From: an uncultured Klebsiella sp.
GTDB lineage: Bacteria; Pseudomonadota; Gammaproteobacteria; Ga0077536
NCBI GenBank assembly: GCA_964555355.1
Contig: CAZKRY010000001.1
Location: 343,177 to 407,176 of the forward strand
Reading direction: 5' to 3'
Length of the DNA: 64,000 bases
Shown piece after piece: positions 6,583 to 36,194 of this stretch. The position numbers and the translations under genes were made by a program. Position 1 is the stretch's first letter. Each line of letters opens with the position of its first letter. The notes under the pieces are model-generated. The model was not told where the DNA came from and searched no databases. It saw nothing but the letters and a program-made list of their open reading frames with translations.

Positions 6583-7233
6583 ATGACCCAGCAACGCGAA
6601 GAATCCCTCACTCTGGAATTGCTCTCAGCGATCGAAGCCAAGAGCGACGTCACTCAGCGCCATATCGCGGACCGCATGGGGGTGGCGCTCGGACTCGCGA
6701 ATTCCTACTTAAAACGCTGTGTGCGAAAGGGGTTGGTGAAAATCACCCAAGCACCGGCTAACCGTTATTTGTATTACTTAACGCCAACCGGGTTCGCCGA
6801 GAAAAGCCGCCTGACAGCGCAGTATTTCAGCTATTCGTTTGATTTTTATCGGCGGGCGAGTGCTTCCACGCGCGAAGCGCTCGCGCTCTGCGCTGAACGG
6901 AACTGGCGGCGATTGCTCTTTATCGGCACCTCTGAACTCGCGGAAATCGCGTTTGTGAGCAGTCATGACTTTAAGTTCGAAATTATTGGGACCTACGCCG
7001 CGGGAAGCGGACTTAAAGCTTTTCTGGGTAGACCGGTGTGGGAAGAAATTCCGCCGCTAGACAAGTTTGACGGTGCGATATTTTGCGCGCTGGATGGCCA
7101 CCAAGCGTGGTTTGAACGTGTTACCCAAGAGATTCCCGTTGAACGATTGGTTTTTCCGGAACTCGTTAAACCGCTCATGCCCGTAACCTCCAATTTTCAC
7201 GCGCCAACGCCGACGTCAGGCGCAAGGAGTTAA
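6583..7233 (+). CDS. Winged-helix-turn-helix transcriptional regulator at the head of the glycan locus
   Basis: N-terminal wHTH (SDVTQRHIADRMGVALGLANSYLKRCVRKGLVKI). The C-terminal ~120 aa are of unknown function. First gene of the + strand block. Confidence 0.5.
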   Translation: MTQQREESLTLELLSAIEAKSDVTQRHIADRMGVALGLANSYLKRCVRKGLVKITQAPANRYLYYLTPTGFAEKSRLTAQYFSYSFDFYRRASASTREALALCAERNWRRLLFIGTSELAEIAFVSSHDFKFEIIGTYAAGSGLKAFLGRPVWEEIPPLDKFDGAIFCALDGHQAWFERVTQEIPVERLVFPELVKPLMPVTSNFHAPTPTSGARS

Positions 7234-7237
7234 CTCG

Positions 7238-8302
7238 ATGGAATATCGCGTGCCTTATCGGATTGAGGACCGACGCATACGGTTTGCCGTCGTCGGCGCC
7301 GGCCGCATTTCCGACCGGCATTTCGATGCACTGAAGGCGCATGCGGAACGCGCCGAACTGGTCGCCATCGCGGACAGCGATCCCCAAGTACTCAAAAAGA
7401 CTTGCGAAACACACGGGGTGGAGGGTTATGACGGATTAGATGCGTTGCTCACAAAAAGCGACGCCGACTGCGTCGCGCTATGCACGCCCTCGGGTCTTCA
7501 CCCGGCACAAGCGATGCAAGTTGCCCGCGCCGGCCGCCACGTCGTTACGGAAAAGCCAATGGCCACGCGCCTGGTCGATGGCAAACGCATGGTACAAACC
7601 TGCGACGAAAACAATGTTCATCTGTTCGTCGTCAAACAGAATCGCCTGAACCCGACGTTGCAGTTGGTCAAAAATGCGGTGCGCAAACGGCGCTTTGGAC
7701 GCATCTACATGGTCAACGTCAATGTGTTCTGGACGCGACCGCAGTCTTATTACGACTCATCCCGTTGGCGCGGAACCTGGGAATTTGACGGCGGCGCATT
7801 CATGAACCAAGCCAGCCACTACATTGATCTGCTCGACTGGCTAATTGGCCCAATCGAGAGCGTGCATGCCTATACCTCAACACTCGAACGCAATATCGAA
7901 GTCGAAGATAGCGGGGTCGCCAATATCAAATGGCGCTCCGGCGCGCTGGGGTCGCTCAATGTCACGATGTTGACCTACCCGCGTAACCTTGAAGGCTCGA
8001 TCACTATCTTGGGTGAAAAGGGCTCGGTGCAAGTAGGCGGTGTTGCCGTCAACGAAATCAAACACTGGGAGTTTGCCGAGCCTGACGCCGACGATGAGAA
8101 AGTTAAAGACGCAAGTTACGGCACGGCGTCCGTATATGGCGTCGGCCATCCGATGTACTACGACAACGTTATTCGCGTGCTACGGGGCGAAGCGAGAGCG
8201 GAAACCGATGGACGGGAAGGGCTACGTTCGCTCGAAACCTTGATCGCCATGTACATCTCCTCACGCGATGGCCGTCGCGTGTCATTGCCGCTCGAATATT
8301 GA
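7238..8302 (+). CDS. wbpB: Gfo/Idh/MocA-family oxidoreductase, WbpB-like UDP-GlcNAcA 3-dehydrogenase
   Basis: N-terminal Rossmann fold ([14 protein letters not shown]) and EKP motif (VVTEKPMA). Gene order with the WbpD-like and WbpE-like genes downstream. AGGAG ribosome-binding site 8 nt upstream. Confidence 0.75.
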
Positions 8303-8312
8303 GGCTCTGACT

Positions 8313-8888
8313 ATGGCCTATACCGTTCACCCAAGCGCAATCGTCGATGACGGCGCGCAGATCGGCGATGGCACCCGGATCTGGCACTGGGTGCATGTGA
8401 GCGCGGGCGCGCGGATCGGCCAAGGTTGCTCGCTTGGCCAGAATGTCTATGTGGGCAATCGCGTCGTCATCGGCAATAACGTCAAGATTCAAAATAACGT
8501 TTCGGTATATGACAACGTAACACTAGAAGACGGCGTCTTTTGCGGTCCGAGCATGGTGTTCACGAATGTTTATAACCCACGCTCGGAAGTCTCACGCAAA
8601 GACGAGTACCGCGATACGTTGGTGAAGCGCGGCGCGACCTTAGGTGCTAATTGCACCATCGTGTGCGGGGCGACAATCGGCGAGTACGCATTTATTGGCG
8701 CGGGCGCGGTTGTCAATCGCGATGTGCCGGCGTTTGCGCTAATCGTCGGCGTCCCAGGCAAACAGATGGGATGGATGAGTAAGTTTGGCGAGCGATTGAA
8801 TTTACCGCTCAGCGGAGACGCTGAGTGTATTTGTCCGCATACGAACGAACGTTATGTACTACGAGCCGGCGTGTGTACCACCGTTTGA
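8313..8888 (+). CDS. wbpD: Left-handed beta-helix (hexapeptide) N-acetyltransferase, WbpD-like
   Basis: Hexapeptide repeats ([27 protein letters not shown]...). The start is taken at the internal ATG 8313 (MAYTVHPS) rather than the ORF-track start 8268, to avoid overlapping wbpB. Confidence 0.75.
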
Positions 8889-8916: not shown

Positions 8917-10023
8917 ATGATGGAATTCATTGATCTCAAAACGCAGTACCAACGGCTTAAACCGGAAATCGACCGACATATCCAACAAGTGCTCGACCAC
9001 GGCGCCTACATCATGGGGCCCGAAGTCGCGGCGATAGAAGCCAAACTCGCGGAGTATGTCGGCACCAAACACTGCATTACCGTCGCCAGTGGTACCGATG
9101 CACTGCTAATCGCGATGATGGCGCTGGGGATCAAGGCCGGCGATGAAATCATCACGACCCCATTCACGTTTATCGCAACTGGCGAAATGATTGCGCTACT
9201 CGGCGCCAAACCCGTGTTTGTCGATATCGATCGTGAGACCTATAACCTCGATCCCACGCTCACTGAAGCCGCCATCACCTCGCGCACTCGCGCGATCATG
9301 CCGGTGAGTTTGTATGGCCAGTGCGCCGAATTGGACGAGATTAATGCGATCGGCGCCAAACACGGCATTCCGGTGATTGAAGATGCGGCGCAGAGTTTCG
9401 GCGCCACTTACAAAGGCCGAAAATCATGTGCACTTTCCACCATTGGATGCACGAGCTTTTTCCCGTCCAAGCCGCTGGGTTGCTATGGCGATGGCGGCGC
9501 CTGTTTTACGGACGACGATGCGCTCGCCAAAGCAATGCGCGAGATCCGCGTACACGGCCAGGACCGCCGTTATCATCATCCAATCATCGGTGTGAATGGC
9601 CGGATGGATACGTTGCAGTGCGCGATTCTGCTCGCCAAGTTCCCGACGTTTGCGGAAGAAGTACGGCTGCGTGAAGAAATCGGCGCGCGCTACACAGCGC
9701 TAATCAAGAATGCCGCAAGCGGCGCGCAACCGCCGACACTAAGGTCCTACAACACCTCGGTCTATGCGCAGTACACGGTGGAAGTGGACGCGCGAGACGT
9801 GGTCCAAGAAAAATTGAAAGCGGCCGGGATCCCAACCGCCGTGCATTATCCGGTACCGCTACATTTGCAGCCGGCGTTTGCGTCGCTTGGACTGAAAGAA
9901 GGAGCCTTCCCCAAGAGCGAAGCGGCGGCGAAACGGGTGATGAGTTTGCCGATGCATCCGTTTCTAAATGAATCAACTCAACAACAGGTTATTCAAGCGC
10001 TGATGTCGGCGACTTCACGCTAA
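8917..10023 (+). CDS. wbpE: DegT/DnrJ/EryC1/StrS-family PLP aminotransferase, WbpE-like
   Basis: DegT-family fold with the PLP-lysine region (SFFPSKPLGCYGDGGA). Position after the WbpB/WbpD-like genes. Confidence 0.8.
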   Translation: MMEFIDLKTQYQRLKPEIDRHIQQVLDHGAYIMGPEVAAIEAKLAEYVGTKHCITVASGTDALLIAMMALGIKAGDEIITTPFTFIATGEMIALLGAKPVFVDIDRETYNLDPTLTEAAITSRTRAIMPVSLYGQCAELDEINAIGAKHGIPVIEDAAQSFGATYKGRKSCALSTIGCTSFFPSKPLGCYGDGGACFTDDDALAKAMREIRVHGQDRRYHHPIIGVNGRMDTLQCAILLAKFPTFAEEVRLREEIGARYTALIKNAASGAQPPTLRSYNTSVYAQYTVEVDARDVVQEKLKAAGIPTAVHYPVPLHLQPAFASLGLKEGAFPKSEAAAKRVMSLPMHPFLNESTQQQVIQALMSATSR

Positions 10024-10043
10024 TTCAACTTCCGGAGCACAAC

Positions 10044-11039
10044 ATGGATATTCGCGGTAAGAAACTCGTGGTCATTGGTGGAGCCGGTTTAATCGGCTCA
10101 CACGCCGTTGATTTATTAACTAAGGAAGATGTCGGCGAAATCGTTATCTACGATAACTTCGTCCGCGGCACGACCGAAAATTTAGCGGGCGCGTTACGCG
10201 ATCCGCGGGTCAAGGTGTATGAAGCCGGTGGCGACGTTTGTCAGGCGGATATTCTCGATGCGGCGCTCAAAGGCGCGGATGGCGTATTTCATTTCGCCGC
10301 GTTGTGGCTCCTGCAGTGCCATGAGTTCCCGCGCGCGGCGTTTGACGTCAATGTGCGCGGCACTTTCAACGTGCTTGAGGCATGCGTCGCGAACAAAGTT
10401 CAACGCCTCGTCTACTCGTCATCCGCATCAGTCTACGGCGACGCGGTGGAAGAACCGATGACCGAAGACCACCCGTTTCTAAATAAGAATTTTTACGGCG
10501 CGACGAAAATTTGCGGCGAATCGATGGCGCGCGCCTATCACCATCGCTATGGACTGAACTTTGTCGGCTTACGCTACATGAACGTCTATGGCCCTCGCCA
10601 GGATTATCGGGGCGCGTATATCGCGGTGATCATGAAGATGTTGGACGCAATCGACAAAGGTGAGGGCCCAACGATCTTCGGAGACGGCTCCGAAGCTTTT
10701 GACTTTGTGGCCGTTGAAGACTGCGGCGCGGCGAATGTCTGCGCCATGAAGGCCGAGACGGTCGATCGCTTTTACAATGTCGGCACCGGCCATCGGACCT
10801 CTTTAAAAGAAATTGCCGAGCTACTGCTACGTCTATCTGGCTCGAAAGCTACCATCAATTACGCGCCCCGCAGTCAAGCGACGTTCGTTCGCAACCGGAT
10901 CGGCTGCCCGAAACGGGCAACGGCCGAAATCGGTTTTACCGCGAAAATCGCACTCGAAGAAGGCATGCGTCGAGTCATCGATTGGCGCAAGTCGCACATT
11001 GAGGAAGTGAACTCGCGTCGCGCGAAGGCTGCGAAGTAG
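10044..11039 (+). CDS. NAD-dependent epimerase/dehydratase (extended SDR; UDP-sugar 4-epimerase/decarboxylase-like)
   Basis: GGAGLIGSH glycine-rich NAD motif and catalytic YxxxK (YGATKICGE); ~330 aa. Confidence 0.8.
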   Translation: MDIRGKKLVVIGGAGLIGSHAVDLLTKEDVGEIVIYDNFVRGTTENLAGALRDPRVKVYEAGGDVCQADILDAALKGADGVFHFAALWLLQCHEFPRAAFDVNVRGTFNVLEACVANKVQRLVYSSSASVYGDAVEEPMTEDHPFLNKNFYGATKICGESMARAYHHRYGLNFVGLRYMNVYGPRQDYRGAYIAVIMKMLDAIDKGEGPTIFGDGSEAFDFVAVEDCGAANVCAMKAETVDRFYNVGTGHRTSLKEIAELLLRLSGSKATINYAPRSQATFVRNRIGCPKRATAEIGFTAKIALEEGMRRVIDWRKSHIEEVNSRRAKAAK

Positions 11040-11059: not shown

Positions 11060-12934
11060 ATGTGCGGAATTGCTGGGATTCTACACCTGGACGGCGCGCC
11101 CGCTTCGGTGACGTTGCTGCGCAGGATGACGGATTCAATCTCGCATCGTGGACCCGATGGCGAAGGTCATCACGTGGATGGGTCGCTCGCGCTAGGACAT
11201 CGACGCCTGTCAATCATCGACTTATCCGCTGCCGGCCATCAACCGATGGCGACACCCGATGGCCGCTACCTGCTTACCTACAACGGGGAGATCTACAACT
11301 TCCAGGAACTACGCACAGCGCTTGAAGCGCTGGGTCGCCAGTTCCGTTCGCGCACGGATTCCGAGGTGTTGCTAATGGGCTTCGCGGAGTGGGGGCTGCG
11401 CGTCCTGGACCGCCTGAACGGCATGTTTGCCTTTGCGATCTGGGACAAAGAAACCCGCACACTGACGCTTGCTCGTGACCGTTACGGTATCAAGCCGCTG
11501 TATTGGGCAAAGGTTGGCGCAACGGTTCTGTTCGGCTCCGAGATAAAGGCGATCCTTGCCCACGGTGCTATCAGGGCAAAACTCGATGGACCGGGTCTCC
11601 TCGAATACTTCACTTTTCAGAACTTTTTCACCGACCATACGCTATTCGACGGAGTGCGATTGTTGCCAGCCGGCACCTATTTGCAAGTCCGCGCCGACGT
11701 GCGCTGGACGCCATCGCCGGTGCGTTATTGGGACTATGATTTCAATGAACCCCTCGAGCGCATATCCGACGCGGAATACCTCGAAGAACTCGACCGGCTC
11801 TTCAAGCAGGCAGTGAACAGGCAACTAGTCAGTGACGTTGAACTCGGCAGTTACCTGTCCGGCGGTATGGATTCGGGTTCCATCACGGCGATCGCGGCGA
11901 GACAGATCCCTGATCTCAAGTCCTTCACGTGCGGTTTCGACCTACGCTCCGCGTCCGGCCTCGAACTGAACTTCGATGAGCGCCAAGCCGCCGAAGCGAT
12001 GTCCTATGAATTTAAGACCGAACATTATGAGATGGTGCTCAAAGCCGGGGACATGGAGCGTGTAATCCCGCGGCTGGCTTGGCACTTGGAGGAACCGCGC
12101 GTTGGCCAGTGCTACCCAAACTTCTATGCCGCGCAACTGGCAAGCAAGTTCGTCAAGGTAGTGCTATCCGGCGCGGGCGGTGACGAGTTGTTCGGTGGTT
12201 ATCCATGGCGCTACTACCGCGCCGTCGTCAACGACGATTTCGAACATTATATCGACAAGTATTATTCGTACTGGCAGCGCTTAGTCCCGAACAAGACCAT
12301 AAAGCAGCTGTTCGCGCCAATCTGGAGCGACGTCAAGGACGTTTGGACACGTGATATTTTTCGCGATGTCTTCGGTCATCACGCCGCTTCGCTCACGCGG
12401 CCGGAAGATTACGTCAACCACTCGTTGTACTTCGAGGCGAAAACTTTCCTGCACGGATTATTGGTGGTGGAAGACAAGATGAGTATGGCGCATTCGCTCG
12501 AAACGCGCGTGCCTTTCCTCGACAACGACCTCGTGGACTTCGCGACGCGCGTGCCGGTATCGCTGAAACTTGGCAACCTAGGCGAAGTGGTGAGACTCAA
12601 CGAGAACGAGCCTTCGCACAAGACGACCAAGTACTATCAGAAAACCAATGATGGAAAACTTTTATTGCGAAAGATGATGTCGCGGCATATCCCGGCGGAG
12701 ATCGCGGATCGTGAAAAGCAGGGGTTTTCCGCGCCCGATGCGAGTTGGTTCAAGGGAGAAAGCATCGACTACGTGAAACGCATGCTCTACCAGGGGCCGA
12801 CAAGCCTCTACAAATTCCTCGATCGCGGTACCGTTCATGGCTTAGTCGATGAGCACCTCGAAGGTCACGAGAATCGGCGGCTGTTGATCTGGTCGTTGCT
12901 GAATGTCGAGCAGTGGTGCAGGCATTACCTGTGA
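11060..12934 (+). CDS. Asparagine synthase (glutamine-hydrolysing)-family amidotransferase, WbpS/AsnB-like
   Basis: N-terminal MCGIAG (Ntn Cys2), GATase-2 domain, PP-loop SGGMDSGS. Confidence 0.85.
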   Translation: MCGIAGILHLDGAPASVTLLRRMTDSISHRGPDGEGHHVDGSLALGHRRLSIIDLSAAGHQPMATPDGRYLLTYNGEIYNFQELRTALEALGRQFRSRTDSEVLLMGFAEWGLRVLDRLNGMFAFAIWDKETRTLTLARDRYGIKPLYWAKVGATVLFGSEIKAILAHGAIRAKLDGPGLLEYFTFQNFFTDHTLFDGVRLLPAGTYLQVRADVRWTPSPVRYWDYDFNEPLERISDAEYLEELDRLFKQAVNRQLVSDVELGSYLSGGMDSGSITAIAARQIPDLKSFTCGFDLRSASGLELNFDERQAAEAMSYEFKTEHYEMVLKAGDMERVIPRLAWHLEEPRVGQCYPNFYAAQLASKFVKVVLSGAGGDELFGGYPWRYYRAVVNDDFEHYIDKYYSYWQRLVPNKTIKQLFAPIWSDVKDVWTRDIFRDVFGHHAASLTRPEDYVNHSLYFEAKTFLHGLLVVEDKMSMAHSLETRVPFLDNDLVDFATRVPVSLKLGNLGEVVRLNENEPSHKTTKYYQKTNDGKLLLRKMMSRHIPAEIADREKQGFSAPDASWFKGESIDYVKRMLYQGPTSLYKFLDRGTVHGLVDEHLEGHENRRLLIWSLLNVEQWCRHYL

Positions 12935-12958: not shown

Positions 12959-13807
12959 ATGGAGTTTAGCCTCATAAACACACTGGCTCCGTCCTCAATC
13001 GCGCGCGCGTGCCGCGCAGCGTATATGACTTTAAGCGCAAATAGAGGCCTGGTTTTCGAGATGACTCGGCGAGACCTGAAGTCCCAATACGCCGGCCAAA
13101 TTATCGGGAATTGGTGGGTTGTGGCTCACCCTTTGTTTATGATGTCGCTCTACGTATTCGTGTTTGCGTACGTATTCAAAGTTAAACTGGGCGGGACTGT
13201 TGATATGCCGCTCAGTTACACGGCATATATACTCAGCGGTCTAGTTCCATGGTTGAGTTTCAACCAATGCATGGCGCGGGCACCGGTTGTTTTGCCGGGC
13301 CACGCCAATCTCGTTAAGCAGGTCGTGTTTCCTCTTGAAGTGCTACCCGCCACCGCAGTTCTACTCAATCTAATACCACTAGCAGTCGGTTTGGTCGTCC
13401 TTTTGGTACACGTGATATGGACGAACGGCCTCCCTCCAGCAACTTATTTGTTGCTGCCGTTGCTTGTTACGCTACAGATGATCGCAATGCTAGGTGTTTC
13501 ATTTGCGCTTGCGGCACTTGGTCCATTTGCCCGAGATACGAAAGATATTGTTCAGATCTTCGCGTTAGCCGGCAATTACCTGATGCCGATTTTTTACCTT
13601 CCCGAATGGGTACCGAACGCCCTGCGGCCTCTGCTTTACCTGAATCCGTTTAGTTATCTCACCTGGTGTTATCAGGACGCGCTTTATTTTGGCCGTTTCG
13701 AACATCCGATTGCGTGGGTGGCGAACACCGTGGGCAGTTTTCTCGTTCTGGCATGGGGATACTCTATTTTCCGTAGACTTCGACCGTTCTTTGGAAGCGC
13801 ATTATGA
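12959..13807 (+). CDS. wzm: ABC-2-type polysaccharide exporter permease (Wzm-like)
   Basis: Six predicted transmembrane segments. The RRDLKSQYAGQIIGNWWVVAHPLFMMSLYVFVF motif is typical of Wzm/KpsM permeases. The start could instead be the internal ATG about 66 nt downstream. Confidence 0.75.
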   Translation: MEFSLINTLAPSSIARACRAAYMTLSANRGLVFEMTRRDLKSQYAGQIIGNWWVVAHPLFMMSLYVFVFAYVFKVKLGGTVDMPLSYTAYILSGLVPWLSFNQCMARAPVVLPGHANLVKQVVFPLEVLPATAVLLNLIPLAVGLVVLLVHVIWTNGLPPATYLLLPLLVTLQMIAMLGVSFALAALGPFARDTKDIVQIFALAGNYLMPIFYLPEWVPNALRPLLYLNPFSYLTWCYQDALYFGRFEHPIAWVANTVGSFLVLAWGYSIFRRLRPFFGSAL

Positions 13808-15081
13808 GTTCCAACGAACTTGCAATTTCAGTTTCGAATTTGTGTAAGGCATATAACGTCTATAATTCTCCGCGCGATTTTATTGTCGAGACGATTACAT
13901 CAAAACCGCGCCACATTAAGCAGCTTGCACTTCGAGACGTATCTTTTGAGATCCGACGCGGAGAAATTGTAGGGATAATCGGATCGAACGGTGCCGGTAA
14001 GAGTACGCTGCTCAAAATCCTCGCGGGCACGTTAGACCGCACGAGCGGACAAGTCGCCGTTTACGGCAAGATTTCCGCAATTCTTGAGCTGGGCACTGGA
14101 TTTCATCCTGATTTCACCGGGCGCGAGAACATCATTATCGGCGGAATGTGTTTGGGCATGACCCGAGAGGAAGCTATTCGAAAAGCGCCTTCGATCATTG
14201 AATTCAGTGAGCTAGAGTCGGTAATCGATCAACCGTTTAAAACTTACTCTAGCGGTATGCAGGCGAGGCTGACATTTTCTACGGCGATCAGCATCGACCC
14301 AGACATTCTGATAATCGATGAAGCCCTCGCAGCAGGTGACGCATATTTCGTTAGAAAATCTTTGGCGCGACTACGAGAGATATGCCGCTCGGGCGTGACC
14401 GTGTTGTTGGTGACACATTCAACCGACATAATCGCGACGTTGTGTCAACGCGCTATCTGGCTCGGAGATGGCACGATTCGCATGGAGGGCCCCGCAAAAT
14501 CCGTTGCCAATGCTTATGAGTTAGATGTGGAACGACGAATTACTGCGGGATACAAAGACGCACAAGCAAGAACCTTCGCAAGTAAGGTAAGCGCTGACGG
14601 CGAAGCTTATAGCTTTCTACGCGCTGGGATCGATATCGTCCAATGCCGGGTAGAAGATTCAAATGGCCAGGAGCGAGAGTCATTCGCGCAAGGGGAGCCT
14701 CTACGCATAGTCATTCGGTGGCGCGGACAATTTGACGGAACGTTACATCCAGTTATCGGTATACGATCAACTAGTGGAGTTGTAAGTGGTTTCGTTGGCT
14801 GCGAGCATGGTGTCTATCTGCGGACGCCCAGCGGAGAGGGTCTTATTGCACTGGATATAATCGATCCACTTTATGGTCTCGGCGAGTACTCGATCTCGCT
14901 TTCACTAGTCCGCTCGGACCCCGTTCAAGCCTTAGAAGAGGAAGTGTGTTTCATTCGGAATGCAGCCAAATTCTACGTAAGGCGGCGATTTCCCCGAAGC
15001 TATTGCTATGCGTACGAACCCCGTGTTCGCTGGCGAGATAGCGACGGATGCGAAATCTCTTCACTCGAAATTGAGGCATGA
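13804..15081 (+). CDS. wzt: ABC transporter ATP-binding protein (Wzt-like) with a C-terminal glycan-binding extension
   Basis: Walker [13 protein letters not shown] signature YSSGMQARL, Walker B ILIIDEA. An additional ~170-aa C-terminal domain, as in O-antigen Wzt. ATGA overlap with wzm. Confidence 0.85.
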
Positions 15082-15084
15082 CTC

Positions 15085-18667: not shown

Positions 18668-18696
18668 CAGTTAGCACAACTGAGACGATTCGAAGT

Positions 18697-28440: not shown

Positions 28441-29151
28441 ATGATCTGCCTGAGCTTAGATACGGATCACATGAGCGAGGCGCGCATGCGTGACTTTCTC
28501 GCTGAATTCACGTTGCCGGGCCAAGCCACATTTTTCTGCACCGGAGCGTACGACTCCCTGGCCGCTACGGATCACGAGTTGTGTCCGCATCCGTATCTTG
28601 GGCCGAGCAACGATTGGAACGAGGAGCTTGCGTCGATGCGACGAATGTTTCCGGCCGCCCGCGGCTGGCGCTCGCATTCCTGTGTATTCAGCCACACGCT
28701 CGCGGAGCAGGTTGCCAGCCTTGGTTATGCCTACGCAAGCACCCAGGATGATCTCGGCTGCGCGAACCTGCGTCCGCATCGGCACGCGTGGGGTCTGTGG
28801 CAAATGCCCATCTATTACATGGACAACCTCGACTTCTCCCATTCACGATTCTGGCGAGACTCATCACACCGCCCGTTCGACCAGACGGTTATCGACACCG
28901 CCCTGCGTGGCGATGCCCTGTATATCTTCGATTTCCATCCGATCCATTTAATGCTGAATAGCCATTCCGCGGAGTCGTATTTCGTGCGGCGAGATGCGTT
29001 CAAAGGCGGTGCGGACATTGCGAGCCTGCGCTGTCCGGAGCCTGGGGTGCGGGATTTTTTCTTGAATCTGATCGATGCGATGGCGCGGGCGGGAATGCGG
29101 AGTTACGCGCTGCGCGAAGCGCTTGACGTCCATATTGCGCGCGGCTGCTGA
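28441..29151 (+). CDS. Putative polysaccharide deacetylase (CE4)-like protein
   Basis: The start is set at ATG 28441; the ORF-track start 28294 overlaps the upstream gene. SLDTDH, CPHPY and FHPIHL motifs are spaced like CE4 motifs 1, 2 and 5. Confidence 0.35.
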   Translation: MICLSLDTDHMSEARMRDFLAEFTLPGQATFFCTGAYDSLAATDHELCPHPYLGPSNDWNEELASMRRMFPAARGWRSHSCVFSHTLAEQVASLGYAYASTQDDLGCANLRPHRHAWGLWQMPIYYMDNLDFSHSRFWRDSSHRPFDQTVIDTALRGDALYIFDFHPIHLMLNSHSAESYFVRRDAFKGGADIASLRCPEPGVRDFFLNLIDAMARAGMRSYALREALDVHIARGC

Positions 29152-29175: not shown

Positions 29176-30978
29176 ATGAACGCGACGGTTGGCGTTGAGA
29201 CGGGAATCGTGGTCAAGACAGACGATACGCCGTTCGATCCCGAGGCTTGGGTAAGCGCCTTTTCGGCACGCCATGGTCGTCGTCCGCGCGTGCTGCATAT
29301 CGGCAACATCGCCGCAAACGCCTACAACAACGCGAAAATGATGAACACGCTCGGCTTCGAGTGCGAAGTGTTGTGCGCAGACTACTATCACATGATGGGT
29401 TGTCCCGAGTGGGAGGACGCGGACTTTGAGGGCGATATCGGTGATCACTTCGCGCCCACTTGGTTTAAAGTCAATCTCCGCGGTTACGAGCGGCCTCGAT
29501 GGTTCGCTCAAGGGCCGCTTGAATTGTGCCTACGTTATTTGGGCGCCCGCGCAGCGGGGCGCCAACGTGAAGCGGATTATCTCTGGCGCGCGCTCGGAGT
29601 TTTTAATCGTACGCGCGCGCCGGGGCCGCTCGAATCCTTGCAGAGCACGCTTTATCAGAGTCGTCAATTAGCACGCCGTATAGCCGCTGTCCTAGATTCT
29701 CCGGTGCGCCGTGCACGGGTCATCGCGCGGCTAGAAGAAATCGGGACGCGTTGGCGCCATCAGTGGCGAAGACGCCACGCGCTGGCAGCATCGATGGGCG
29801 CCGTGCGCAATCTGAGTCGCGCCATCGCCGGAAACGCTTTGCTGCTCATCGCAGCAGTGCTTCGCGCCTGTTTTACCTACTTGCCTGGAGGGCGGAACGC
29901 GCGAGAAGTATCGACTGCCGGCGAGAATGCGAGTGCGCAGCTTGCGGCGATGCTTTGCGATGACTTCAAACGACGTTTTCCTTCTCGAACCGATACCCTT
30001 GTTGTCACTGATGTGGCCGCGTACGCCTCGAATATGCCTTCATGGCAGGAAGTCTTTGCCTCGTATGACTTAGTCCAAGGATATGCGACCGATCCGATTT
30101 TTCCGATGTTGACCGGTCATCCCTACTGCGCTTTCGAACATGGAACTTTGCGCGAATTACCGTTTCGCAACGACGCGCTTGGCAGAATGACCGCGTTAGC
30201 CTATGCGCGCGCACAGCAAGTATTTGTCACTAACTCCGATTGCATCGATAACGCCCACCTTCTCGCCGGTTCGCGCGCGATACCTTTACCACACCCGTTC
30301 GACGAAGATCGCGCTGTTCGCGTGATTGGAGCGGACGCGCTTCGCACAAGCCTAAAGGCCGAACTTAATGTCGACATCCTCGCTTTTTTCCCGACTCGTC
30401 ACGATTGGGTAGTGGGCACGGGTTTCGCCGACAAAGCGAACGATCGTTTTTTCCAAGCCCTGGCGCGACTTCATCGCGACGGCTTCCGTGTTGGGGTTGT
30501 TTGCTGCGAATGGGGACGCAACGTCGTCGAAAGCAAGGCGTTGATTCGCGACCTAGGGCTTGAGAATTGCGTGAAGTGGGTTGCGCCGATGGGCGTCGTG
30601 CGTTACGAGCGCCACGTGCTCGCGTGTGATTTTGTCGTTGATCAATTCTTGCTCGGCGCGTTCGGCGGCGTCACTTTTCGTGCGCTGGCCGCCGGTCGAC
30701 CGGTGCTGACCTGGCTACGTTCGGACGAAGTCGCACGAAGCTTTGGCACGTGTCCGCCAATAATCAACTGTCAGTCGACAGAGGATATCGTTCAAGCATT
30801 GGGCCGAGCATTAAGTGTCGCCGGAGAATTACAACGCATCGGCGCTGACGCGCGGCGCTGGGTTGAGCGATACCACAGCGGGCGCGCTACGGTTACCACG
30901 CAATTACGCGCATACGCACGAATAATTGAGGAGTCACGATCATCGGAAAACTTGTCGCCGAAGAGGATGTTGAGGTGA
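29176..30978 (+). CDS. GT-B fold glycosyltransferase (GT4-like), paralog 3 of 3
   Basis: The RVLHIGNIAANAYNNAK...CEVLCADYYHMMGCPEWED N-terminal motif is near-identical to that of paralog 2. C-terminal GT-B domain. Confidence 0.55.
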   Translation: MNATVGVETGIVVKTDDTPFDPEAWVSAFSARHGRRPRVLHIGNIAANAYNNAKMMNTLGFECEVLCADYYHMMGCPEWEDADFEGDIGDHFAPTWFKVNLRGYERPRWFAQGPLELCLRYLGARAAGRQREADYLWRALGVFNRTRAPGPLESLQSTLYQSRQLARRIAAVLDSPVRRARVIARLEEIGTRWRHQWRRRHALAASMGAVRNLSRAIAGNALLLIAAVLRACFTYLPGGRNAREVSTAGENASAQLAAMLCDDFKRRFPSRTDTLVVTDVAAYASNMPSWQEVFASYDLVQGYATDPIFPMLTGHPYCAFEHGTLRELPFRNDALGRMTALAYARAQQVFVTNSDCIDNAHLLAGSRAIPLPHPFDEDRAVRVIGADALRTSLKAELNVDILAFFPTRHDWVVGTGFADKANDRFFQALARLHRDGFRVGVVCCEWGRNVVESKALIRDLGLENCVKWVAPMGVVRYERHVLACDFVVDQFLLGAFGGVTFRALAAGRPVLTWLRSDEVARSFGTCPPIINCQSTEDIVQALGRALSVAGELQRIGADARRWVERYHSGRATVTTQLRAYARIIEESRSSENLSPKRMLR

Positions 30979-31859
30979 AGCGAGTAATGGTCGTTGGCGC
31001 CCAGGGATATCTTGGGCGGGCCTTTTGTCGAGTAGCGAGCGCCCGAGGACTACAAGTGTTCGCGGCCAGTTCTCGTGATGGAACAGGTCTCAATCCAACG
31101 ACCGGACTGGTGAGTGACGGCTTTGCGATACCGCCAAATACCGACACGGTTCTTTATCTCGCGCAATCGCCTTACTACCGCCATGTGCCGCAATATGCGG
31201 CGCATCTTATGACGGTCAATAGCGTTAGCGCCGTTGAGGTGGCGCGTCTCGCGACCGAAGCGGGCGTACGCCGCTTCATCTACGCCTCCACCGGCAGTGT
31301 TTACGAACCCAAATTTACGCCGCTCGCCGAAACAGCGCCGCTGTTGGAGACCGCATGGTATCCGTTGTCGAAAATTCTCGCCGAGAAGGCGCTCGCGTTG
31401 TTCAGACCCGCGCTCGATGTTTGTGCCGTACGCATTTTTGGAATTTACGGCCCCATGCAACAAGACAAGCTCGTGCCGAATCTTGTCAATCGATTGCGCG
31501 AAAATCAACCGGTGATTCTTCAGGCAAACCCCACAAATCCCGCTGATCGCGGCGGGCTGCGAATCTCGCTGTGCCATATCGACGACGCGTGCCAGGTGCT
31601 ACTGCAACTAATCGCGATCGCCGGACAATTACCGCACATTCTCAACCTTGGCGGCGATGAGGCAGTCGATCTGCGCACGCTGGCGACGCTGCTTTCGCGT
31701 CGACTTGGGGTCGCGGCAACCTTTACCGAAACCGATATCGAGCGGCATGGTGATCTCGTATGCGATGGAAGCTTGCTTGCATCGTTAGTAAAACCTGAAT
31801 TCAGGCCCATTGCAGAAGGCTTGCAGTATGTAGTCGATCCGCGCGAGGGTCGAGATTGA
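30975..31859 (+). CDS. NAD-dependent epimerase/dehydratase-family protein (SDR)
   Basis: VVGAQGYLG Rossmann motif and YxxxK (YPLSKILAE). GTGA overlap with the upstream gene; an alternative ATG is at 30987. Confidence 0.7.
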   Translation: MKRVMVVGAQGYLGRAFCRVASARGLQVFAASSRDGTGLNPTTGLVSDGFAIPPNTDTVLYLAQSPYYRHVPQYAAHLMTVNSVSAVEVARLATEAGVRRFIYASTGSVYEPKFTPLAETAPLLETAWYPLSKILAEKALALFRPALDVCAVRIFGIYGPMQQDKLVPNLVNRLRENQPVILQANPTNPADRGGLRISLCHIDDACQVLLQLIAIAGQLPHILNLGGDEAVDLRTLATLLSRRLGVAATFTETDIERHGDLVCDGSLLASLVKPEFRPIAEGLQYVVDPREGRD

Positions 31860-33037
31860 GTGCGCCGTGTAAGCGCCGCTTCGGCCTTGTGCTCGTCGGC
31901 GTTGGCGATTTAACGGGAGGAGGCGGCGCGGAACGTTACTTCGCGGACTTGTTTCTCACGCACCGTGCGCGAGCGGCTCATGCCAACGAAGAACTTTGGC
32001 TAATCACGGACGCCACAACCATTACCAGGCTCGAGGCGATTGGCCGTTGTGTGAAAGGTGAACGAGTAATCCAAGTCCCAGAGCGGCGCTTCGTCGCCGC
32101 GTTTGGCGAGACGCGCCGTTTGCGGCAAATCTCGACCAGCGGAGGCTTCGATCTTTTGCATCTAACGCAAGCGTTGCCACGCCATCTTCTCTGGCTATGG
32201 ACGCTGCCTCGTCTTAGATCTCGAATCACGATGAATCTCAATGATGACGAGATTGCGCTGCGCTTGGAATCCAGACCGTTACCGCGCGGGCGCGATTTGG
32301 AATGGCGAACCTATCGAGCGTATTTCCAATCGACAGCAATCGACGGATACATGGTTTGGTATCGTCGCTTAGCTGAAGTCTTGCCCCGCTTTCTCGCGAA
32401 GCGAACGTCTACCGTACGCGCCGCCCAGTACTGTTTCGTGGATGTGGAAAAATTCAAGCCTGCGGCCTTAAAACAAAAACAAATTGTGTTTGCCGGGCGA
32501 TTTGTGTCGGTTAAGCGGCCGGAGCTATTTGTCGCGGCCGTGGCAATCGCGCGCGCACGTATTCCCGAGTGCTTGGCAACTTGGAAATTTTCGATGTTTG
32601 GCAAAGGGCCGCTCGAGCGCGCGCTTCGCGAACAATGCCACGCGGCCGGATTGGACGATATTCTGACCATTGGCTATGCAGCCGACATGGGCTCGGTGCT
32701 TTCGACGAGCAATTGTTTCGTCTCTACGCAGGATCACGAGAACTTCACTTCTCTCGCGATGCTGGAGGCAATGGCTTGCGGTAACGCGATTATCGCAAGA
32801 GACGTCGGACAGACCGTGGATTTTGTGCGCCCGGGTAGAAATGGGTTGTTGGTAGATTCTGACAAGCCGGAAGCGCTTGCGGATGCGTTAGTTGAATACG
32901 TTTCGCATCCCGAATCTCACGCCGTGTATGCGAAGGAAAGCCGTCGAATTACCGAAGAAGAACATTGCGCCGAAAATGCGCTCTCGGAGTTTTTGGAATT
33001 TTGGACGACAGTCTCTTCTAGCCACGCGTATGGATGA
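31856..33037 (+). CDS. Glycosyltransferase family 4 (GT-B)
   Basis: The GGAERYFADL N-terminal motif and C-terminal EAMACGNAIIA are typical of GT4/GT1. Apparent TTG start overlapping the upstream stop. Confidence 0.75.
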   Translation: MSAPCKRRFGLVLVGVGDLTGGGGAERYFADLFLTHRARAAHANEELWLITDATTITRLEAIGRCVKGERVIQVPERRFVAAFGETRRLRQISTSGGFDLLHLTQALPRHLLWLWTLPRLRSRITMNLNDDEIALRLESRPLPRGRDLEWRTYRAYFQSTAIDGYMVWYRRLAEVLPRFLAKRTSTVRAAQYCFVDVEKFKPAALKQKQIVFAGRFVSVKRPELFVAAVAIARARIPECLATWKFSMFGKGPLERALREQCHAAGLDDILTIGYAADMGSVLSTSNCFVSTQDHENFTSLAMLEAMACGNAIIARDVGQTVDFVRPGRNGLLVDSDKPEALADALVEYVSHPESHAVYAKESRRITEEEHCAENALSEFLEFWTTVSSSHAYG

Positions 33038-34199
33038 AAAACCACTAGCGCGGCGGATCCGTATTACGCATCTGATTCCGAGTCTTGAAATTGGCGGCGC
33101 CGAACAGTCGCTAGTCAAGCTGGTTACGGGCCTCGACCCGCAAGTATTCGAACAGCGCGTTATCTCGATGATCGGGGGCGGCGCGCTGGCGAGTAAGCTG
33201 GAGGCAGTTGGGATCCCGCTCGAGTCACTCGGCATGCGACGCGGACAACCGTCACCGCGTGCGTACTGGCGGCTTCGTCGGTCTCTTCGTGGCGCTCCTC
33301 CGGACGTGCTCCAGACGTGGCTATACCACGCGGACTTGCTTGGGACGATTGCCGTCGGGCGCGCGACCCGGCCCAGTCTCGTGTGGAACGTACGGTGTTC
33401 AAACATGGATCTGACGCAATATCGATCACTAACGAGATTGGTGTTGTTTATTTTGTCTCGATGGGCTTTTCGGCCTTTAGCGGTTTTGGTTAATAGTGAA
33501 GCGGGTCGGCGTTACCATGCCGCGCTTGGTTATGCTCCACGACGTTGGGAGGTCATCCCTAACGGGTTTGATACCGAGCGATTCCGTCCCGACTCGGTGG
33601 CGCGAGACGCCATTCGTCGAGAGCTAGCTATTCCGCCGCAAGCACCCATCGTCGGCTTGGTTGCCCGTCATGATCCCGCGAAGGATCACCGCACATTTTT
33701 AGAGGCCGCCCGGCTGGTTCACACGGCTTGTCCCTTAACACGGTTTATTCTAATAGGCAGCGGCATCCCTGCGTTGCGAGAAGCGGTGTCCGCGCAGGGG
33801 CTTGCCTCGCATGTGCATTTGCTTGATGCACGCAGCGATATCGAACGAGTCATGGCAGCGTTTGACGTAGGTTGTCTTGCTTCCGCATGGGGCGAGGGGT
33901 TTCCGAACGTGCTCGGTGAAATGATGGCCTGTGGCGTACCTTGCGTAACAACTCGCGTGGGTGATGCGGCAACGATTATCGGCACGACAGGAGAAGTCGT
34001 TTCGCCCGGCGACGCCACCGCGCTCGCCACCGCGTTGATCGGGCTTTGTTCAGTAACTCCGGCGGCGCGCGCGCGGTTAGGCGCGGCGGCGCGCGCGCGA
34101 ATTCAGGCGGATTATTCGCTGGCAGTCGTCTTGGCGCGCTACGCGGATTTTTATCATTCGTTGGCGGATGTCGCGGCCCTCGCGCAAGTCAATTCTTAG
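33030..34199 (+). CDS. Glycosyltransferase family 4 (GT-B)
   Basis: The start is set at ATG 33030, overlapping the upstream gene by 8 nt (ATGGATGA). IRITHLIPSLEIGGAEQ N-terminal motif, C-terminal GEMMACGVPCV. Confidence 0.8.
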   Translation: MDEKPLARRIRITHLIPSLEIGGAEQSLVKLVTGLDPQVFEQRVISMIGGGALASKLEAVGIPLESLGMRRGQPSPRAYWRLRRSLRGAPPDVLQTWLYHADLLGTIAVGRATRPSLVWNVRCSNMDLTQYRSLTRLVLFILSRWAFRPLAVLVNSEAGRRYHAALGYAPRRWEVIPNGFDTERFRPDSVARDAIRRELAIPPQAPIVGLVARHDPAKDHRTFLEAARLVHTACPLTRFILIGSGIPALREAVSAQGLASHVHLLDARSDIERVMAAFDVGCLASAWGEGFPNVLGEMMACGVPCVTTRVGDAATIIGTTGEVVSPGDATALATALIGLCSVTPAARARLGAAARARIQADYSLAVVLARYADFYHSLADVAALAQVNS

Positions 34200-34238
34200 A
34201 AATCACGAAGCTATCGATAAGCATTGGAATAAAACATT

Positions 34239-36194
34239 ATGTGTGGAATTGTCGGCGCGCTTATCGGTAACGCGTTCGATCGATCGAACTTACGTTCGGC
34301 GGTGGACGCAATGAACACGCGTCTCCATCACCGCGGCCCCGACGCCGGCGACGTGTGGGTTGACGCCTCCGCTGGCCTTGCGCTCGGCCACCGACGCTTG
34401 TCGATTCTCGATCTCTCGCCCGCAGGCGCGCAGCCGATGCACTCCAAGTGTGGTCGCTATGTCATCGTCTTTAACGGCGAGATCTATAACTTCGCGTCTT
34501 TGCGCGACGAGCTTGCCGCGCGCGGAGAAATCTTTGTCGGGCATTCGGATACGGAAGTCTTGCTCGCGGGTTTTGTCGCTTGGGGTATCGAACAGACACT
34601 AAAACGCGCCAACGGCATGTTTGCGATTGCACTCTGGGACAAACGCGAACGTGAATTAACGCTGGCGCGCGACAGATTAGGCGAAAAGCCGCTGTATTAC
34701 GGAATGCATCAGGGATCGTTGTTGTTCGCCTCGGAACTCAAAGCACTGCATGCCTGGCCGGATTTCAGACCAGAGATCGATCGCGATGCGCTTACGCTCT
34801 TTCTCCGACATAACTACATTCCAGAGCCGTTTTGTGTTTATCGGGGCTTACGCAAACTGCCGCCTGCGCATTTCTTGACCGTTGGTGTCGATTCGCTCCG
34901 AGAGTTACCCGCGCCCCGACCGTATTGGTCGTTGCAAGATGCGATCACGCGTGGGCGGCAAACACCCTTCTCCGGCACACGCGAAGAAGGCGTGGAGTTA
35001 TTGGATACAACACTGCGCGAATCGGTGCGGCTGCGCATGGTGGCCGATGTCCCGCTCGGCGCGTTTCTCTCGGGCGGGATCGATTCCTCCACCGTGGTCG
35101 CCCTGATGCAGGCACAGAGCACACGCCCAATCCGCACGTTTTCGATTGGCTTTACCGTGCCTGAGTATGACGAAGCGCCCTATGCGCGCGCGGTCGCCAA
35201 ACACTTGGGCACGGACCACACGGAGCTTTACGTCAATCCGGATGAGACGCGCGCCGTCATCCCGCGCCTCCCGGCGATGTATGACGAACCCTTTGCGGAC
35301 TCATCGCAAATTCCAACCTTCTTGGTGTCCTCGCTCGCCCGCCAACACGTCACGGTCGCAATGTCAGGTGACGCCGGAGACGAACTTTTTGCTGGCTACA
35401 CACGTTATTCCGTGGCACTCGACCTTTGGCGCCGGCAACAACGTTTGCCATTGGTTGCCCGGCGTGCGCTGGCGCGCGTGTTGACCGGCATCGCTCCGCG
35501 GCAGTGGGATAGTTTGTTCAAGGTACTTGGCCCAGTACTGCCGGCGCGTCTACGTCAACCGATGCCCGGTGACAAATTGCATAAGCTCGCAGGCTTGCTC
35601 GCAATCAATGAATCGCTCGCGATGTATCGCGATTTGATTTCCCTATGGAAAGAGCCGGAGCGAGTGGTACTCGGAGGCCGCGAACCACCGAGTGTCATGT
35701 CGATTGCAGCTAACTTGCCTAACGAACTCGAGTTTGTCGAACGCATGATGGCGCTGGATACCTTGCACTATCTGCCGGGCGACATTTTGACCAAAGTCGA
35801 TCGCGCGAGCATGGCAGTAAGTCTGGAAGCGCGCGTGCCGTTACTCGATACGGAAGTCGTCGAACTCGCTTGGCGCTTACCGCAGTCATTTAAGGTGCAT
35901 CAAGGCGTGGGCAAATGGGTGCTGCGCGAGGTGCTCGCGCGCTACGTGCCGCGTAAGCTTTTTGAACGGCCCAAAATGGGTTTCGGGATCCCGATTGACG
36001 CCTGGCTGCGCGGCCCTTTACGCGAATGGGCGGAAGATCTGTTGAACGAATCGCGCTTAGCGCAAGCCGGTTTTTTCGACGCTAAGGCAGTACGGCAGGT
36101 ATGGCAGGCTCATCTATCCGGCGGCCAGAATCTGCAATATTTGTTGTGGACGATTTTGACTTTCGAGGCGTGGCGGGCCGCTTATCGGAGCTAA
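34239..36194 (+). CDS. Asparagine synthase (glutamine-hydrolysing)-family amidotransferase, second paralog
   Basis: MCGIVG N-terminus and PP-loop SGGIDSST. Paralogous to 11060..12934. Confidence 0.85.
   Translation: MCGIVGALIGNAFDRSNLRSAVDAMNTRLHHRGPDAGDVWVDASAGLALGHRRLSILDLSPAGAQPMHSKCGRYVIVFNGEIYNFASLRDELAARGEIFVGHSDTEVLLAGFVAWGIEQTLKRANGMFAIALWDKRERELTLARDRLGEKPLYYGMHQGSLLFASELKALHAWPDFRPEIDRDALTLFLRHNYIPEPFCVYRGLRKLPPAHFLTVGVDSLRELPAPRPYWSLQDAITRGRQTPFSGTREEGVELLDTTLRESVRLRMVADVPLGAFLSGGIDSSTVVALMQAQSTRPIRTFSIGFTVPEYDEAPYARAVAKHLGTDHTELYVNPDETRAVIPRLPAMYDEPFADSSQIPTFLVSSLARQHVTVAMSGDAGDELFAGYTRYSVALDLWRRQQRLPLVARRALARVLTGIAPRQWDSLFKVLGPVLPARLRQPMPGDKLHKLAGLLAINESLAMYRDLISLWKEPERVVLGGREPPSVMSIAANLPNELEFVERMMALDTLHYLPGDILTKVDRASMAVSLEARVPLLDTEVVELAWRLPQSFKVHQGVGKWVLREVLARYVPRKLFERPKMGFGIPIDAWLRGPLREWAEDLLNESRLAQAGFFDAKAVRQVWQAHLSGGQNLQYLLWTILTFEAWRAAYRS

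Follow-up and report, generated by a model that had tools for sequence, protein, structure and literature searches.

Analysis of a 64,000-nucleotide stretch of contig CAZKRY010000001.1 (assembly GCA_964555355.1, from an uncultured Klebsiella sp.), here called the window, led to the identification of a glycan biosynthesis locus of 25 consecutive open reading frames (ORFs), g1 to g25, which occupy positions 6583-36194 and are all located on the + strand. The locus very probably directs the assembly of a glycan that is fed by diacetamido-uronic acid precursors and exported by the ATP-binding cassette (ABC) transporter Wzm/Wzt. The new element is its modularity, as the window represents a maximal union of cassettes that are found apart elsewhere.

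An earlier note on this DNA had described a 25-gene + strand locus with many 4-nt overlaps, and the ORF layout confirmed this description. With sensible start codons, the gene junctions ranged from -8 to +39 nt, showing 4-nt overlaps at nine junctions and an 8-nt overlap at one; the likely starts of g3 (8313), g14 (21680), g20 (28441) and g24 (33030) differ from those of the longest ORFs. Families were assigned by Pfam and NCBIfam profile scans and solved homologues by PDB sequence search, and these analyses, together with fold predictions for g12 and the large glycosyltransferases (GTs), recovered all the enzyme families that the earlier note had named. Along with the precursor genes and the transporter, the locus encodes two extended short-chain dehydrogenases/reductases (SDR1, g5; SDR2, g22), two glutamine-dependent amidotransferases (AsnB1, g6; AsnB2, g25), a radical S-adenosylmethionine (SAM) protein (rSAM, g9), two SAM methyltransferases (MT1, g10; MT2, g19), two FemAB-like transferases (Fem1, g11; Fem2, g14), two further DegT aminotransferases (DegT2, g15; DegT3, g17), a sulfotransferase (g16), a WbmS-family deacetylase (g20), three large GTs (bigGT1, g13; bigGT2, g18; bigGT3, g21), two GT4 enzymes (GT4a, g23; GT4b, g24) and the uncharacterised protein g12.

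Precursor synthesis and export

The g2 protein (7238..8302) matched the WlbA/WbpB-type UDP-GlcNAcA 3-dehydrogenase structures 3q2i (E-value 1.7e-170) and 3q2k (4.3e-157) over its full length, in addition to the Pfam GFO_IDH_MocA profile. The g3 protein (8313..8888), containing Hexapep repeats, matched the WlbB/WbpD-type 3-N-acetyltransferase 3mqg (1.2e-99), while g4 (8917..10023; DegT 4.5e-122) matched the 3-aminotransferase WbpE (3nyu, 1.5e-145) and was assigned to the WbpE/WlbC type. The WbpB/D/E-like trio recognized in the earlier note was unambiguous, and by sequence match the three proteins are near-certain orthologues of the solved enzymes of the UDP-2,3-diacetamido-2,3-dideoxy-glucuronate pathway. 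Close homologues of WlbA, WlbB and WbpE are shared with the UDP-ManNAc3NAcA pathway of Pseudomonas aeruginosa (WbpA/B/D/E/I) and Bordetella (WlbA-D), and the top-scoring solved structures for g2 and g3 were WlbA and WlbB. Unlike this pathway, the locus is not accompanied by WbpA (UDP-GlcNAc 6-dehydrogenase) or WbpI/WlbD (2-epimerase), as no UDP-sugar dehydrogenase or 2-epimerase family match was returned by the scanned genes, namely the plausible genes of the 64-kb window with five small ORFs left out.

The export functions were assigned to g7 (12959..13807; GC 0.506), a Wzm ABC-2 permease (ABC2_membrane 2e-15), and g8 (13804..15081), a Wzt ATPase (ABC_tran; Wzt/RfbE 1.5e-58) which carries the Walker A motif GSNGAGKST and a C-terminal domain of about 180 aa. 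The scanned genes contained no Wzx, Wzy, WaaL or WecA/WbaP. Since Wzm/Wzt are present and Wzx/Wzy are not, ABC-transporter-dependent assembly is the best reading, in agreement with the route proposed in the earlier note. The note had also reported that no initiating transferase is visible, which held true with the flanks included and is normal for an ABC-dependent pathway; missing WecA/WbpL-type and WaaL genes do not exclude this pathway, because they are commonly encoded outside such loci.

The locus was compared with other known systems. The O5 antigen of P. aeruginosa is Wzy-dependent, unlike the product of the present Wzm/Wzt locus. The E. coli O9a/O8-type O-polysaccharides are ABC-dependent and rely on a chain terminator and on the carbohydrate-binding domain of Wzt. 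The window resembles this type in having Wzm, a Wzt with a C-terminal extension and methyltransferase genes beside the transporter, with no Wzx/Wzy; it differs in the lack of a WbdD-like kinase/methyltransferase with a coiled coil and in a Wzt_C match that remains below threshold. The AsnB-like amidotransferase, FemAB-like protein, GT4 and MarR_EPS regulator are kinds also found in exopolysaccharide (EPS) loci of the XrtA/PEP-CTERM type. Membership in this group was rejected on the scores obtained for TIGR03108 (g25, 592 bits vs a cut-off of 817), TIGR03019 (62 vs 260), TIGR03088 (148 vs 409) and TIGR04176 (MarR_EPS, g1, 62 vs 88), no exosortase being present in the scanned window. A group 2/3 (KpsMT) capsule was likewise discarded, as its KpsC/KpsS and KpsD/KpsE partners were not found among the scanned genes, which also lacked any outer membrane polysaccharide export (OPX) or polysaccharide co-polymerase (PCP) protein and any oligosaccharyltransferase.

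Modular organization across 79 loci

At least 829 homologues of the large GTs were detected. A scan through this GT, retaining one genome per species, provided 79 loci, and the 25 window proteins were compared by BLASTP with the six-frame ORFs of these loci, which span Alpha-, Beta- and Gammaproteobacteria, Cyanobacteria, Planctomycetota, Nitrospirota, Myxococcota, Bradyrhizobium, Bosea, Mariprofundus and others. Homologues of SDR2 occurred in 57 of the 79 loci, any AsnB in 55, Wzm/Wzt in 36 and DegT3 in 34, the latter with 60-74% identity.

Recurring partner sets emerged from this comparison, i.e. SDR1 with AsnB1, bigGT-MT-WbmS, bigGT-SDR2-AsnB, Fem-sulfotransferase and Wzt-(rSAM)-MT-Fem-deacetylase. 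SDR1 was accompanied by AsnB1 in 21 of 22 loci, with 60-79% identity even between classes (70-79% for SDR1 in distant loci). MT2 and a WbmS-like gene were paired in 11 of 15 loci, and Fem2 and the sulfotransferase in 10 of 11; each of the 10 loci having a Fem2 homologue also had one of the sulfotransferase. SDR2 came directly after a bigGT gene in 39 loci and MT2 did so in 11, and a bigGT2-type gene preceded MT2-WbmS in 11 loci; bigGT1 usually adjoined Fem2, the sulfotransferase or DegT3. In many loci the order SDR1-AsnB1-Wzm-Wzt was directly followed by a large GT. DegT2 homologues occurred in just 3 of the 79 loci, three large-GT genes in just 8, and all the modules in just two, a metagenome-assembled genome (MAG), GCA_943370145.1, and locus L013.

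Locus L013 itself, with all the tailoring modules, belongs to a group of six (L013, L042, L047, L053, L054 and L060) bearing the MAG labels Bifidobacteriaceae, Berkelbacteria (candidate phyla radiation, CPR), Acidimicrobiia, Oscillospiraceae and Chloroflexota. This type of glycan may occur on both sides of the monoderm/diderm boundary, or else some of the bins or labels are wrong.

Closest relatives and mosaic structure

The same MAG GCA_943370145.1, labelled Hydrogenophaga intermedia, contained a locus collinear with ours from WlbA through AsnB2. Identities were 79-94% for g2-g6, 66-95% for g11-g22 (MT2 95%) and 75% for AsnB2, and fell to 51-57% for Wzm, Wzt and MT1 (Wzm 56%, Wzt 51% overall), 56% for GT4a and 32% for GT4b; the C-terminal part of Wzt was about 30% identical to that of the MAG locus (L001). 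As GT4b shows only 32% identity at the same position, it has been replaced relative to the MAG.

The GC content of Wzm, Wzt, rSAM and MT1 (12959-17546) is 0.48-0.515, compared with 0.54-0.62 in the other genes of the locus, so that these four genes form a low-GC island. Because identity and GC both break there, the locus can be described as mosaic, its export/cap cassette and one of its GT4 genes having been exchanged with respect to the closest relative. In the MAG locus, positions 18348-20371 between GT4b and AsnB2 hold a gene for a MurJ-family flippase-like protein and an extra methyltransferase, both of which are absent from the window.

Further variants of the locus were found in a Logan assembly (L002) and in a JGI contig. 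Neither the bigGT2-MT2-WbmS block nor DegT2 is present in the JGI relative, which has a g1-type gene upstream of WlbA. All the locus proteins tested were singletons when clustered at 90% identity.

The cassette adjacent to Wzt

The four genes following Wzt are candidates for a terminal cap cassette. The radical SAM protein g9 (15085..16707; Radical_SAM 1.2e-14) carries a CNFKCSYC motif, a Cys-rich C-terminal region and an uncharacterised N-terminal domain of about 200 aa. Its family is rare, 9 of 1.84 billion representatives being matched at E<=1e-30, and a metagenome scan with g9 returned distant radical-SAM cores only. The gene is missing from the closest collinear loci, and its homologues in L095 and L040 are likewise located after Wzt and ahead of MT1-Fem1, while another lies beside a Wzt gene in a JGI contig (P0367). 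It is followed by MT1 (g10, 16704..17546; Methyltransf_11 1.4e-15) and by Fem1 (g11, 17543..18667), an Acetyltransf_6/FemAB-like acyl(aminoacyl)transferase (Acetyltransf_6 6.3e-13, FemAB 1.6e-9). The order Wzt-(rSAM)-MT1-Fem1 was seen again in L001, L002, L040, L082 and L095, and Wzt_C matches were present in the Wzt homologues of L001, L002, L082 and L095 and in the one beside P0367.

The fourth gene, g12 (18697..20094), encodes a 465-aa protein of an uncharacterised family for which no Pfam, NCBIfam or PDB sequence match was returned; 297 homologues were detected, all labelled 'hypothetical', and the invariant residues of the family include GDDDQ, HPD, RNHG and NLHP. An AlphaFold (AF2) model built from 34 homologues (pLDDT 87.7) was submitted to Foldseek, which matched the CE4 structure 3s6o (2e-7), the deacetylase part of human NDST1 (2.4e-7), PdaC, WbmS (1.8e-5) and ArnD, the C-terminal domain being predicted to adopt a CE4-type deacetylase fold. 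A local hhalign profile-profile comparison of the g12 and g20 families gave a weak match (E = 0.02, probability 2%), and because of this the kinship between g12 and g20 was taken from the fold search. The two putative deacetylases listed in the earlier note are therefore g20, by its WbmS profile, and g12, by its predicted fold.

In L095, Fem1 and g12 homologues are fused into a single 866-aa protein, and fusions were also found in P0186/P0193, an argument for a coupling of deacetylation to re-acylation. The gene order in this locus is SDR1-AsnB1-Wzm-Wzt-rSAM-MT1-Fem1::g12 fusion; its AsnB gene is broken into many small ORFs, probably by long-read frameshift errors.

Relationship with the Bordetella wbm and Achromobacter loci

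The Bordetella wbm O-antigen locus comprises 24 genes, including wzm/wzt and three glutamine-dependent amidotransferases, wbmC, wbmI and wbmZ (PMC2615507), within about 32 kb (PMC5784241), and the annotations of wbm loci include aminotransferase, methyltransferase and formyltransferase genes (PMC12243275). Its O-antigen is a homopolymer of L-GalNAc3NAcA, partly in the uronamide form, and its cap is a 2,3,4-triamino-galacturonamide derivative (PMC2615507). The locus in the window is similar in its predicted Wzm/Wzt-dependent assembly, in the predicted use of a 2,3-diacetamido uronic acid/uronamide, and in size and gene number. Considering this precedent and the homologues shared with it, the statement of the earlier note that the number of tailoring enzymes is unusual could not be upheld. 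Moreover, a heavily modified polymer is not implied by gene content, because the mid-locus wbm genes are predicted to act on a single terminal residue and not on the polymer (PMC3849452).

A Bordetella-type wbm locus (L084) was reached via a protein 100% identical to the aligned fragment of WbmS, a deacetylase of solved structure (PDB 3hft), and about 20 kb of it were compared with the window. Identities were 57% for SDR1, 69% over the full length for AsnB1, 48% for DegT3, 25% for the WbmS-like g20, 39-42% over the nucleotide-binding domain of Wzt and 28% for Wzm; the positions of wbmBB (SDR1), wbmZ (AsnB1) and wbmAA (DegT3) were deduced from gene order relative to BB0128 = wbmS. Unlike the window, these 20 kb hold no homologues of the large GTs, Fem1, Fem2, g12, the sulfotransferase, rSAM, SDR2 or the GT4 enzymes. 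Conversely, formyltransferase, ATP-grasp and metallophosphoesterase genes occur in Bordetella only, as do two Wzt-like ATPases, and no window protein matched the 792-aa and 878-aa proteins or the formyltransferase of the stretch examined. Assignment of g5 and g22 as orthologues of WbmF/G/H was also rejected, as g5 matched WbmF (2pzj) at 1e-25, behind many epimerases, and g22 had no WbmG/WbmH match at E<=1e-5. The L-galacto configuration of the Bordetella sugar is consequently not to be assumed for the present glycan.

A locus from Achromobacter xylosoxidans (L082) adjoins the same COXG/MFS flank as the Bordetella-type wbm locus and shares the order SDR1-AsnB1-Wzm-Wzt(Wzt_C)-MT1-Fem1-g12-bigGT1...DegT3-bigGT-SDR2 with the window, at identities of 31-71% (AsnB1 71%), and thereby has much more in common with it than the wbm-type locus does. 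In contrast to the window, it has no rSAM gene, MT2-WbmS module or sulfotransferase/Fem2 pair, the WlbA/B/E trio is missing from its 21-kb stretch, and it alone carries an acyl carrier protein (ACP)/KAS III/hexapeptide cassette. No product of this locus was found in a full-text literature search.

Proposed biosynthetic route and alternative explanations

From the observed gene content, families, synteny and modular co-occurrence we infer the substrates and the order of the steps as follows. WlbA, WbpE and WlbB would convert UDP-GlcNAcA, supplied by an unlinked WbpA-type enzyme, into UDP-GlcNAc3NAcA. SDR1 and AsnB1 would then reshape and amidate the sugar to a 2,3-diacetamido-hexuronamide or, together with DegT3, possibly to a 2,3,4-triamino uronamide. 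GT4a and GT4b may build an adaptor on an undecaprenyl diphosphate (Und-PP)-sugar primer, the initiating enzyme being encoded elsewhere. Each of the three large GT4-like GTs would add one kind of residue with its own tailoring set, consisting of Fem2, the sulfotransferase, DegT2 and DegT3 for bigGT1, of MT2 and the WbmS-type deacetylase for bigGT2, where de-N-acetylation would precede methylation, and of SDR2 and AsnB2 for bigGT3. The Wzt-adjacent cassette (rSAM, MT1, Fem1 and g12) might produce a non-reducing terminal cap through N-acyl swapping, methylation and an uncharacterised radical-SAM step, and the divergent C-terminal domain of Wzt would read this cap before export. The finished chain would be exported and then ligated to lipid A-core in a Gram-negative host.

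Taken as a whole, we consider this explanation, a lipid-linked polysaccharide built at the cytoplasmic face, exported by Wzm/Wzt and probably serving as the O-antigen of lipopolysaccharide (LPS), to be moderately well founded. The narrower statement that the product is specifically the LPS O-polysaccharide, in a host presumably Gram-negative, is held a shade less firmly, and the assignment of one module to each GT and the details of the terminal cap are put forward tentatively. Several points weigh against the explanation. WbpA, WbpI, the initiating transferase and WaaL were not found in the 64-kb window, hence precursor supply and acceptor are presumptive. The Wzt_C match of g8 (21.2 bits) falls under the Pfam threshold of 30.4, so that recognition of the cap by Wzt is drawn by analogy. 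Furthermore, the wbm-type GTs have no detectable homologues in the window, as judged from the 20 kb of that locus compared, the model of one module per GT derives from adjacency within +-10 kb in loci gathered through one GT family, i.e. a biased sample, and some of the MAG taxonomic labels are probably unreliable.

In an alternative that follows the heavily modified glycan of the earlier note, the tailoring enzymes would act on the repeat units along the whole chain, so that amide, methyl, sulfate and aminoacyl groups would occur all along the polymer and no distinct cap would be present. The large GTs each travel with their own tailoring set, as would fit modification at the nucleotide-sugar level, and uronamide does occur along the Bordetella chain (PMC2615507). 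However, the mid-wbm genes are predicted to modify the terminal residue in Bordetella (PMC3849452), and the MT1-Fem1-g12 group, with or without rSAM, is tied to Wzt and co-varies with its C-terminal domain, which is the pattern expected of a cap and its reader; we therefore find tailoring along the whole chain somewhat unlikely. The same assembly machinery could also serve a product other than O-antigen, either an exopolysaccharide (capsule-like, attached to the wall or free) or a glycan moved to protein or to an S-layer after export. The lack of WaaL and core genes in the scanned window is in line with this proposal, as are the sub-threshold matches of the regulator and several enzymes to EPS (XrtA/PEP-CTERM) families. 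Related loci are in addition labelled Bifidobacteriaceae, Oscillospiraceae, Berkelbacteria and Chloroflexota, lineages without LPS, and such monoderm/CPR labels suggest that the glycan type is not bound to lipid A-core. Nevertheless, the OPX/PCP, KpsC/S/D/E, exosortase and oligosaccharyltransferase partners of these products were not found in the scanned window, the sole characterised relative, Bordetella wbm, makes O-antigen (PMC2615507), and the Achromobacter locus shares its COXG/MFS flank with the Bordetella-type wbm locus; a non-O-antigen product is accordingly judged unlikely.

A division into two adjacent co-oriented loci, with precursor and export functions in g1-g10 and the GT and tailoring genes g11-g25 serving a second glycan, would account for the break in GC and identity at Wzm-MT1 and for the MurJ-like flippase gene in the 3' part of the MAG relative. 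This is very improbable, since independent genomes show the same gene order throughout, no separate exporter accompanies the 3' block within the window, the gaps do not exceed 39 nt and stop/start overlaps occur throughout, and SDR1-AsnB1-Wzm-Wzt leads directly into a large GT in many loci.

Significance

The suggestion in the earlier note that the tailoring is exceptional loses force in view of the Bordetella precedent and of a possible terminal cap, and the added value of the locus lies in a modular family with uncharacterised GT and tailoring genes. The comparisons point to the Bordetella-type diacetamido-uronamide O-antigen as one corner of a much larger modular Wzm/Wzt family that reaches across Proteobacteria, Cyanobacteria, Planctomycetota, Nitrospirota and others. 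Its polymerising enzymes would be the GT4-like group with a helical insertion, of at least 829 members, none of them characterised, and g12, the Fem/sulfotransferase pair and rSAM are partner genes with no assigned function. The module map provides hypotheses linking one GT to one sugar, and a natural experiment is provided by versions of the locus that have or lack the rSAM gene and differ by a swapped Wzt C-terminal domain. The map also offers candidates for the genes behind sulfated or N-acyl-swapped amino-uronic glycans. Should the product be just another O-antigen serotype, its significance would be confined to annotation.

At its broadest, the window could be a maximal case of widespread, chemically undescribed surface glycans, poly(2,3-diacetamido / 2,3,4-triamino hexuronamide) polymers made by a dedicated GT4-like family with plug-in cassettes, although we regard so wide a claim as improbable. 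If it were true, the cassette reactions would comprise de-N-acetylation followed by re-acylation or aminoacylation, methylation, sulfation dependent on 3'-phosphoadenosine 5'-phosphosulfate (PAPS) and a rare radical-SAM step, and rSAM would represent a new kind of cap modification read by Wzt. The CE4 deacetylase and the Fem2-sulfotransferase pair could then give N-/O-sulfated amino-uronic glycans, a bacterial counterpart of glycosaminoglycan (GAG) N-deacetylation/N-sulfation. 'Sulfated GAG-like' polymers have been reported from environmental biofilms, their biosynthetic genes not being known (PMC10483923), and the locus would supply candidate genes for them.

Properties of the remaining locus proteins

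Sulfation, methylation, amidation and aminoacylation of the product are predicted from family membership, and the proteins concerned were analysed individually. The locus opens with g1 (6583..7233), a MarR/winged helix-turn-helix regulator with a C-terminal extension (HTH_24 3.3e-8; MarR_2), separated from g2 by 4 nt. SDR1 (g5, 10044..11039; Epimerase 7.8e-48) is of the epimerase/4-oxidoreductase type, its best PDB matches being 6dnt, WbgU/WbpP (~1e-33) and WbmF (1e-25), while SDR2 (g22, 30975..31859; Epimerase 4.3e-23) contains the GxxGxxG and YxxxK motifs. AsnB1 (g6, 11060..12934; Asn_synthase 8e-94, GATase domains) is predicted to form the uronamide; both AsnB1 and AsnB2 (g25, 34239..36194; Asn_synthase 6e-122) start with MCGI and keep the Cys2 nucleophile of glutamine amidotransferases.

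The three large GTs, of the Glycos_transf_1 type in the family scans, were confirmed as paralogous GT-B proteins, in line with the earlier note. The bigGT1 protein (g13, 20091..21683; Glycos_transf_1 7e-7) is 27% identical to both bigGT2 (g18, 25966..27636) and bigGT3 (g21, 29176..30978), which share 36.6% identity over their full length. The AF2 model of bigGT2 (pLDDT 86) showed a GT-B fold which Foldseek placed nearest to the retaining GT4 enzymes MshA (6.5e-11), HepE and BshA, with a helical insertion of about 130 residues in the N-terminal domain. GT4a (g23, 31856..33037; Glyco_trans_1_4 2e-25) and GT4b (g24, 33030..34199; Glyco_transf_4 and Glycos_transf_1) are GT4 glycosyltransferases.

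As for the tailoring genes, Fem2 (g14, 21680..22744) is an Acetyltransf_6/FemAB-like transferase (Acetyltransf_6 5e-11). DegT2 (g15, 22741..23799; DegT 1.8e-47) is a divergent aminotransferase. The pyridoxal phosphate (PLP) lysine context is retained in all three DegT proteins (g4, g15 and g17) and reads SFEGTK in DegT2; DegT3 (g17, 24804..25955; DegT 1.5e-115) is predicted to be a PseC/ArnB-like 4-aminotransferase, with PseC (323 bits) and ArnB (276 bits) scores both below cut-off. The g16 protein (23809..24807) belongs to the Sulfotransfer_3 family (3.4e-13, 50.8 bits vs a Pfam cut-off of 27). Its PAPS-binding signatures G..RSGTT and R-x7-S are conserved, with G50, R53, T57, R193 and S201 invariant in 13 family members, and the retained 5'-phosphosulfate loop and 3'-phosphate motif predict a PAPS-dependent sulfotransferase. 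No useful match came from PDB sequence searches with g12, g14 or g16, and for g16 no solved homologue was recovered by sequence. Beside the related locus L095, positions 13412-16218 contain PAPS synthesis genes, cysNC-like (GTP_EFTU and APS kinase domains) and cysD-like, followed by a transposase. MT2 (g19, 27642..28433) is a SAM methyltransferase (Methyltransf_25 2.8e-22). The adjoining g20 (28441..29151) is a WbmS-family polysaccharide deacetylase (PF22537 1.1e-16), and its family profile aligned with WbmS 3hft at 3.6e-20 across 211 of 234 positions; the RecA matches returned by its PDB search were dismissed as repeat artefacts.

Flanking regions

The run of + strand genes already starts at 2064, with genes apparently unrelated to the glycan. 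Between 2064 and 6518, in the same orientation as the locus, lie a MoxR-type AAA ATPase, a CoxE-like von Willebrand factor A (VWA) protein, a TIGR03790-family protein, a 113-aa ORF and a transglutaminase-like/tetratricopeptide repeat (TPR) protein resembling SirB1. The TIGR03790-family protein scored 218.8 bits against a cut-off of 67, in a family of uncharacterised role, and the 113-aa ORF had no matches in the family scans. No convincing sigma-70 promoter and no excess of terminators were detected upstream of g1.

On the 3' side, the locus is followed by the convergent mscS gene and then by catabolic and regulatory genes with no link to glycans. This region (39286-63502) encodes a three-subunit molybdoenzyme of the CO-dehydrogenase/xanthine-dehydrogenase type, a hybrid histidine kinase, a sigma-54 activator adjoining a P450 and an SDR, a single cluster comprising a CoA-transferase, two luciferase-like monooxygenases, a lactonase, an acyl-CoA ligase and an APH-family kinase, and a 1212-aa adenylate cyclase-AAA-TPR protein. 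The gap from the end of the locus to mscS is spanned by a tandem repeat (36201-36682) consisting of 3.3 copies of a 146-bp unit with 93% matches. The terminator-like matches found downstream were rejected as the locus terminator, as they belong to this repeat and to the minus-strand mscS. Each 146-bp unit contains the GC-rich palindromes CCCTCTCCCGCATGCGGGAGAGGG and CCTCTCCCGGTGGGGAGAGG, which give it a REP/BIME-like look, and a palindrome related to these occurs at 49833-49856.

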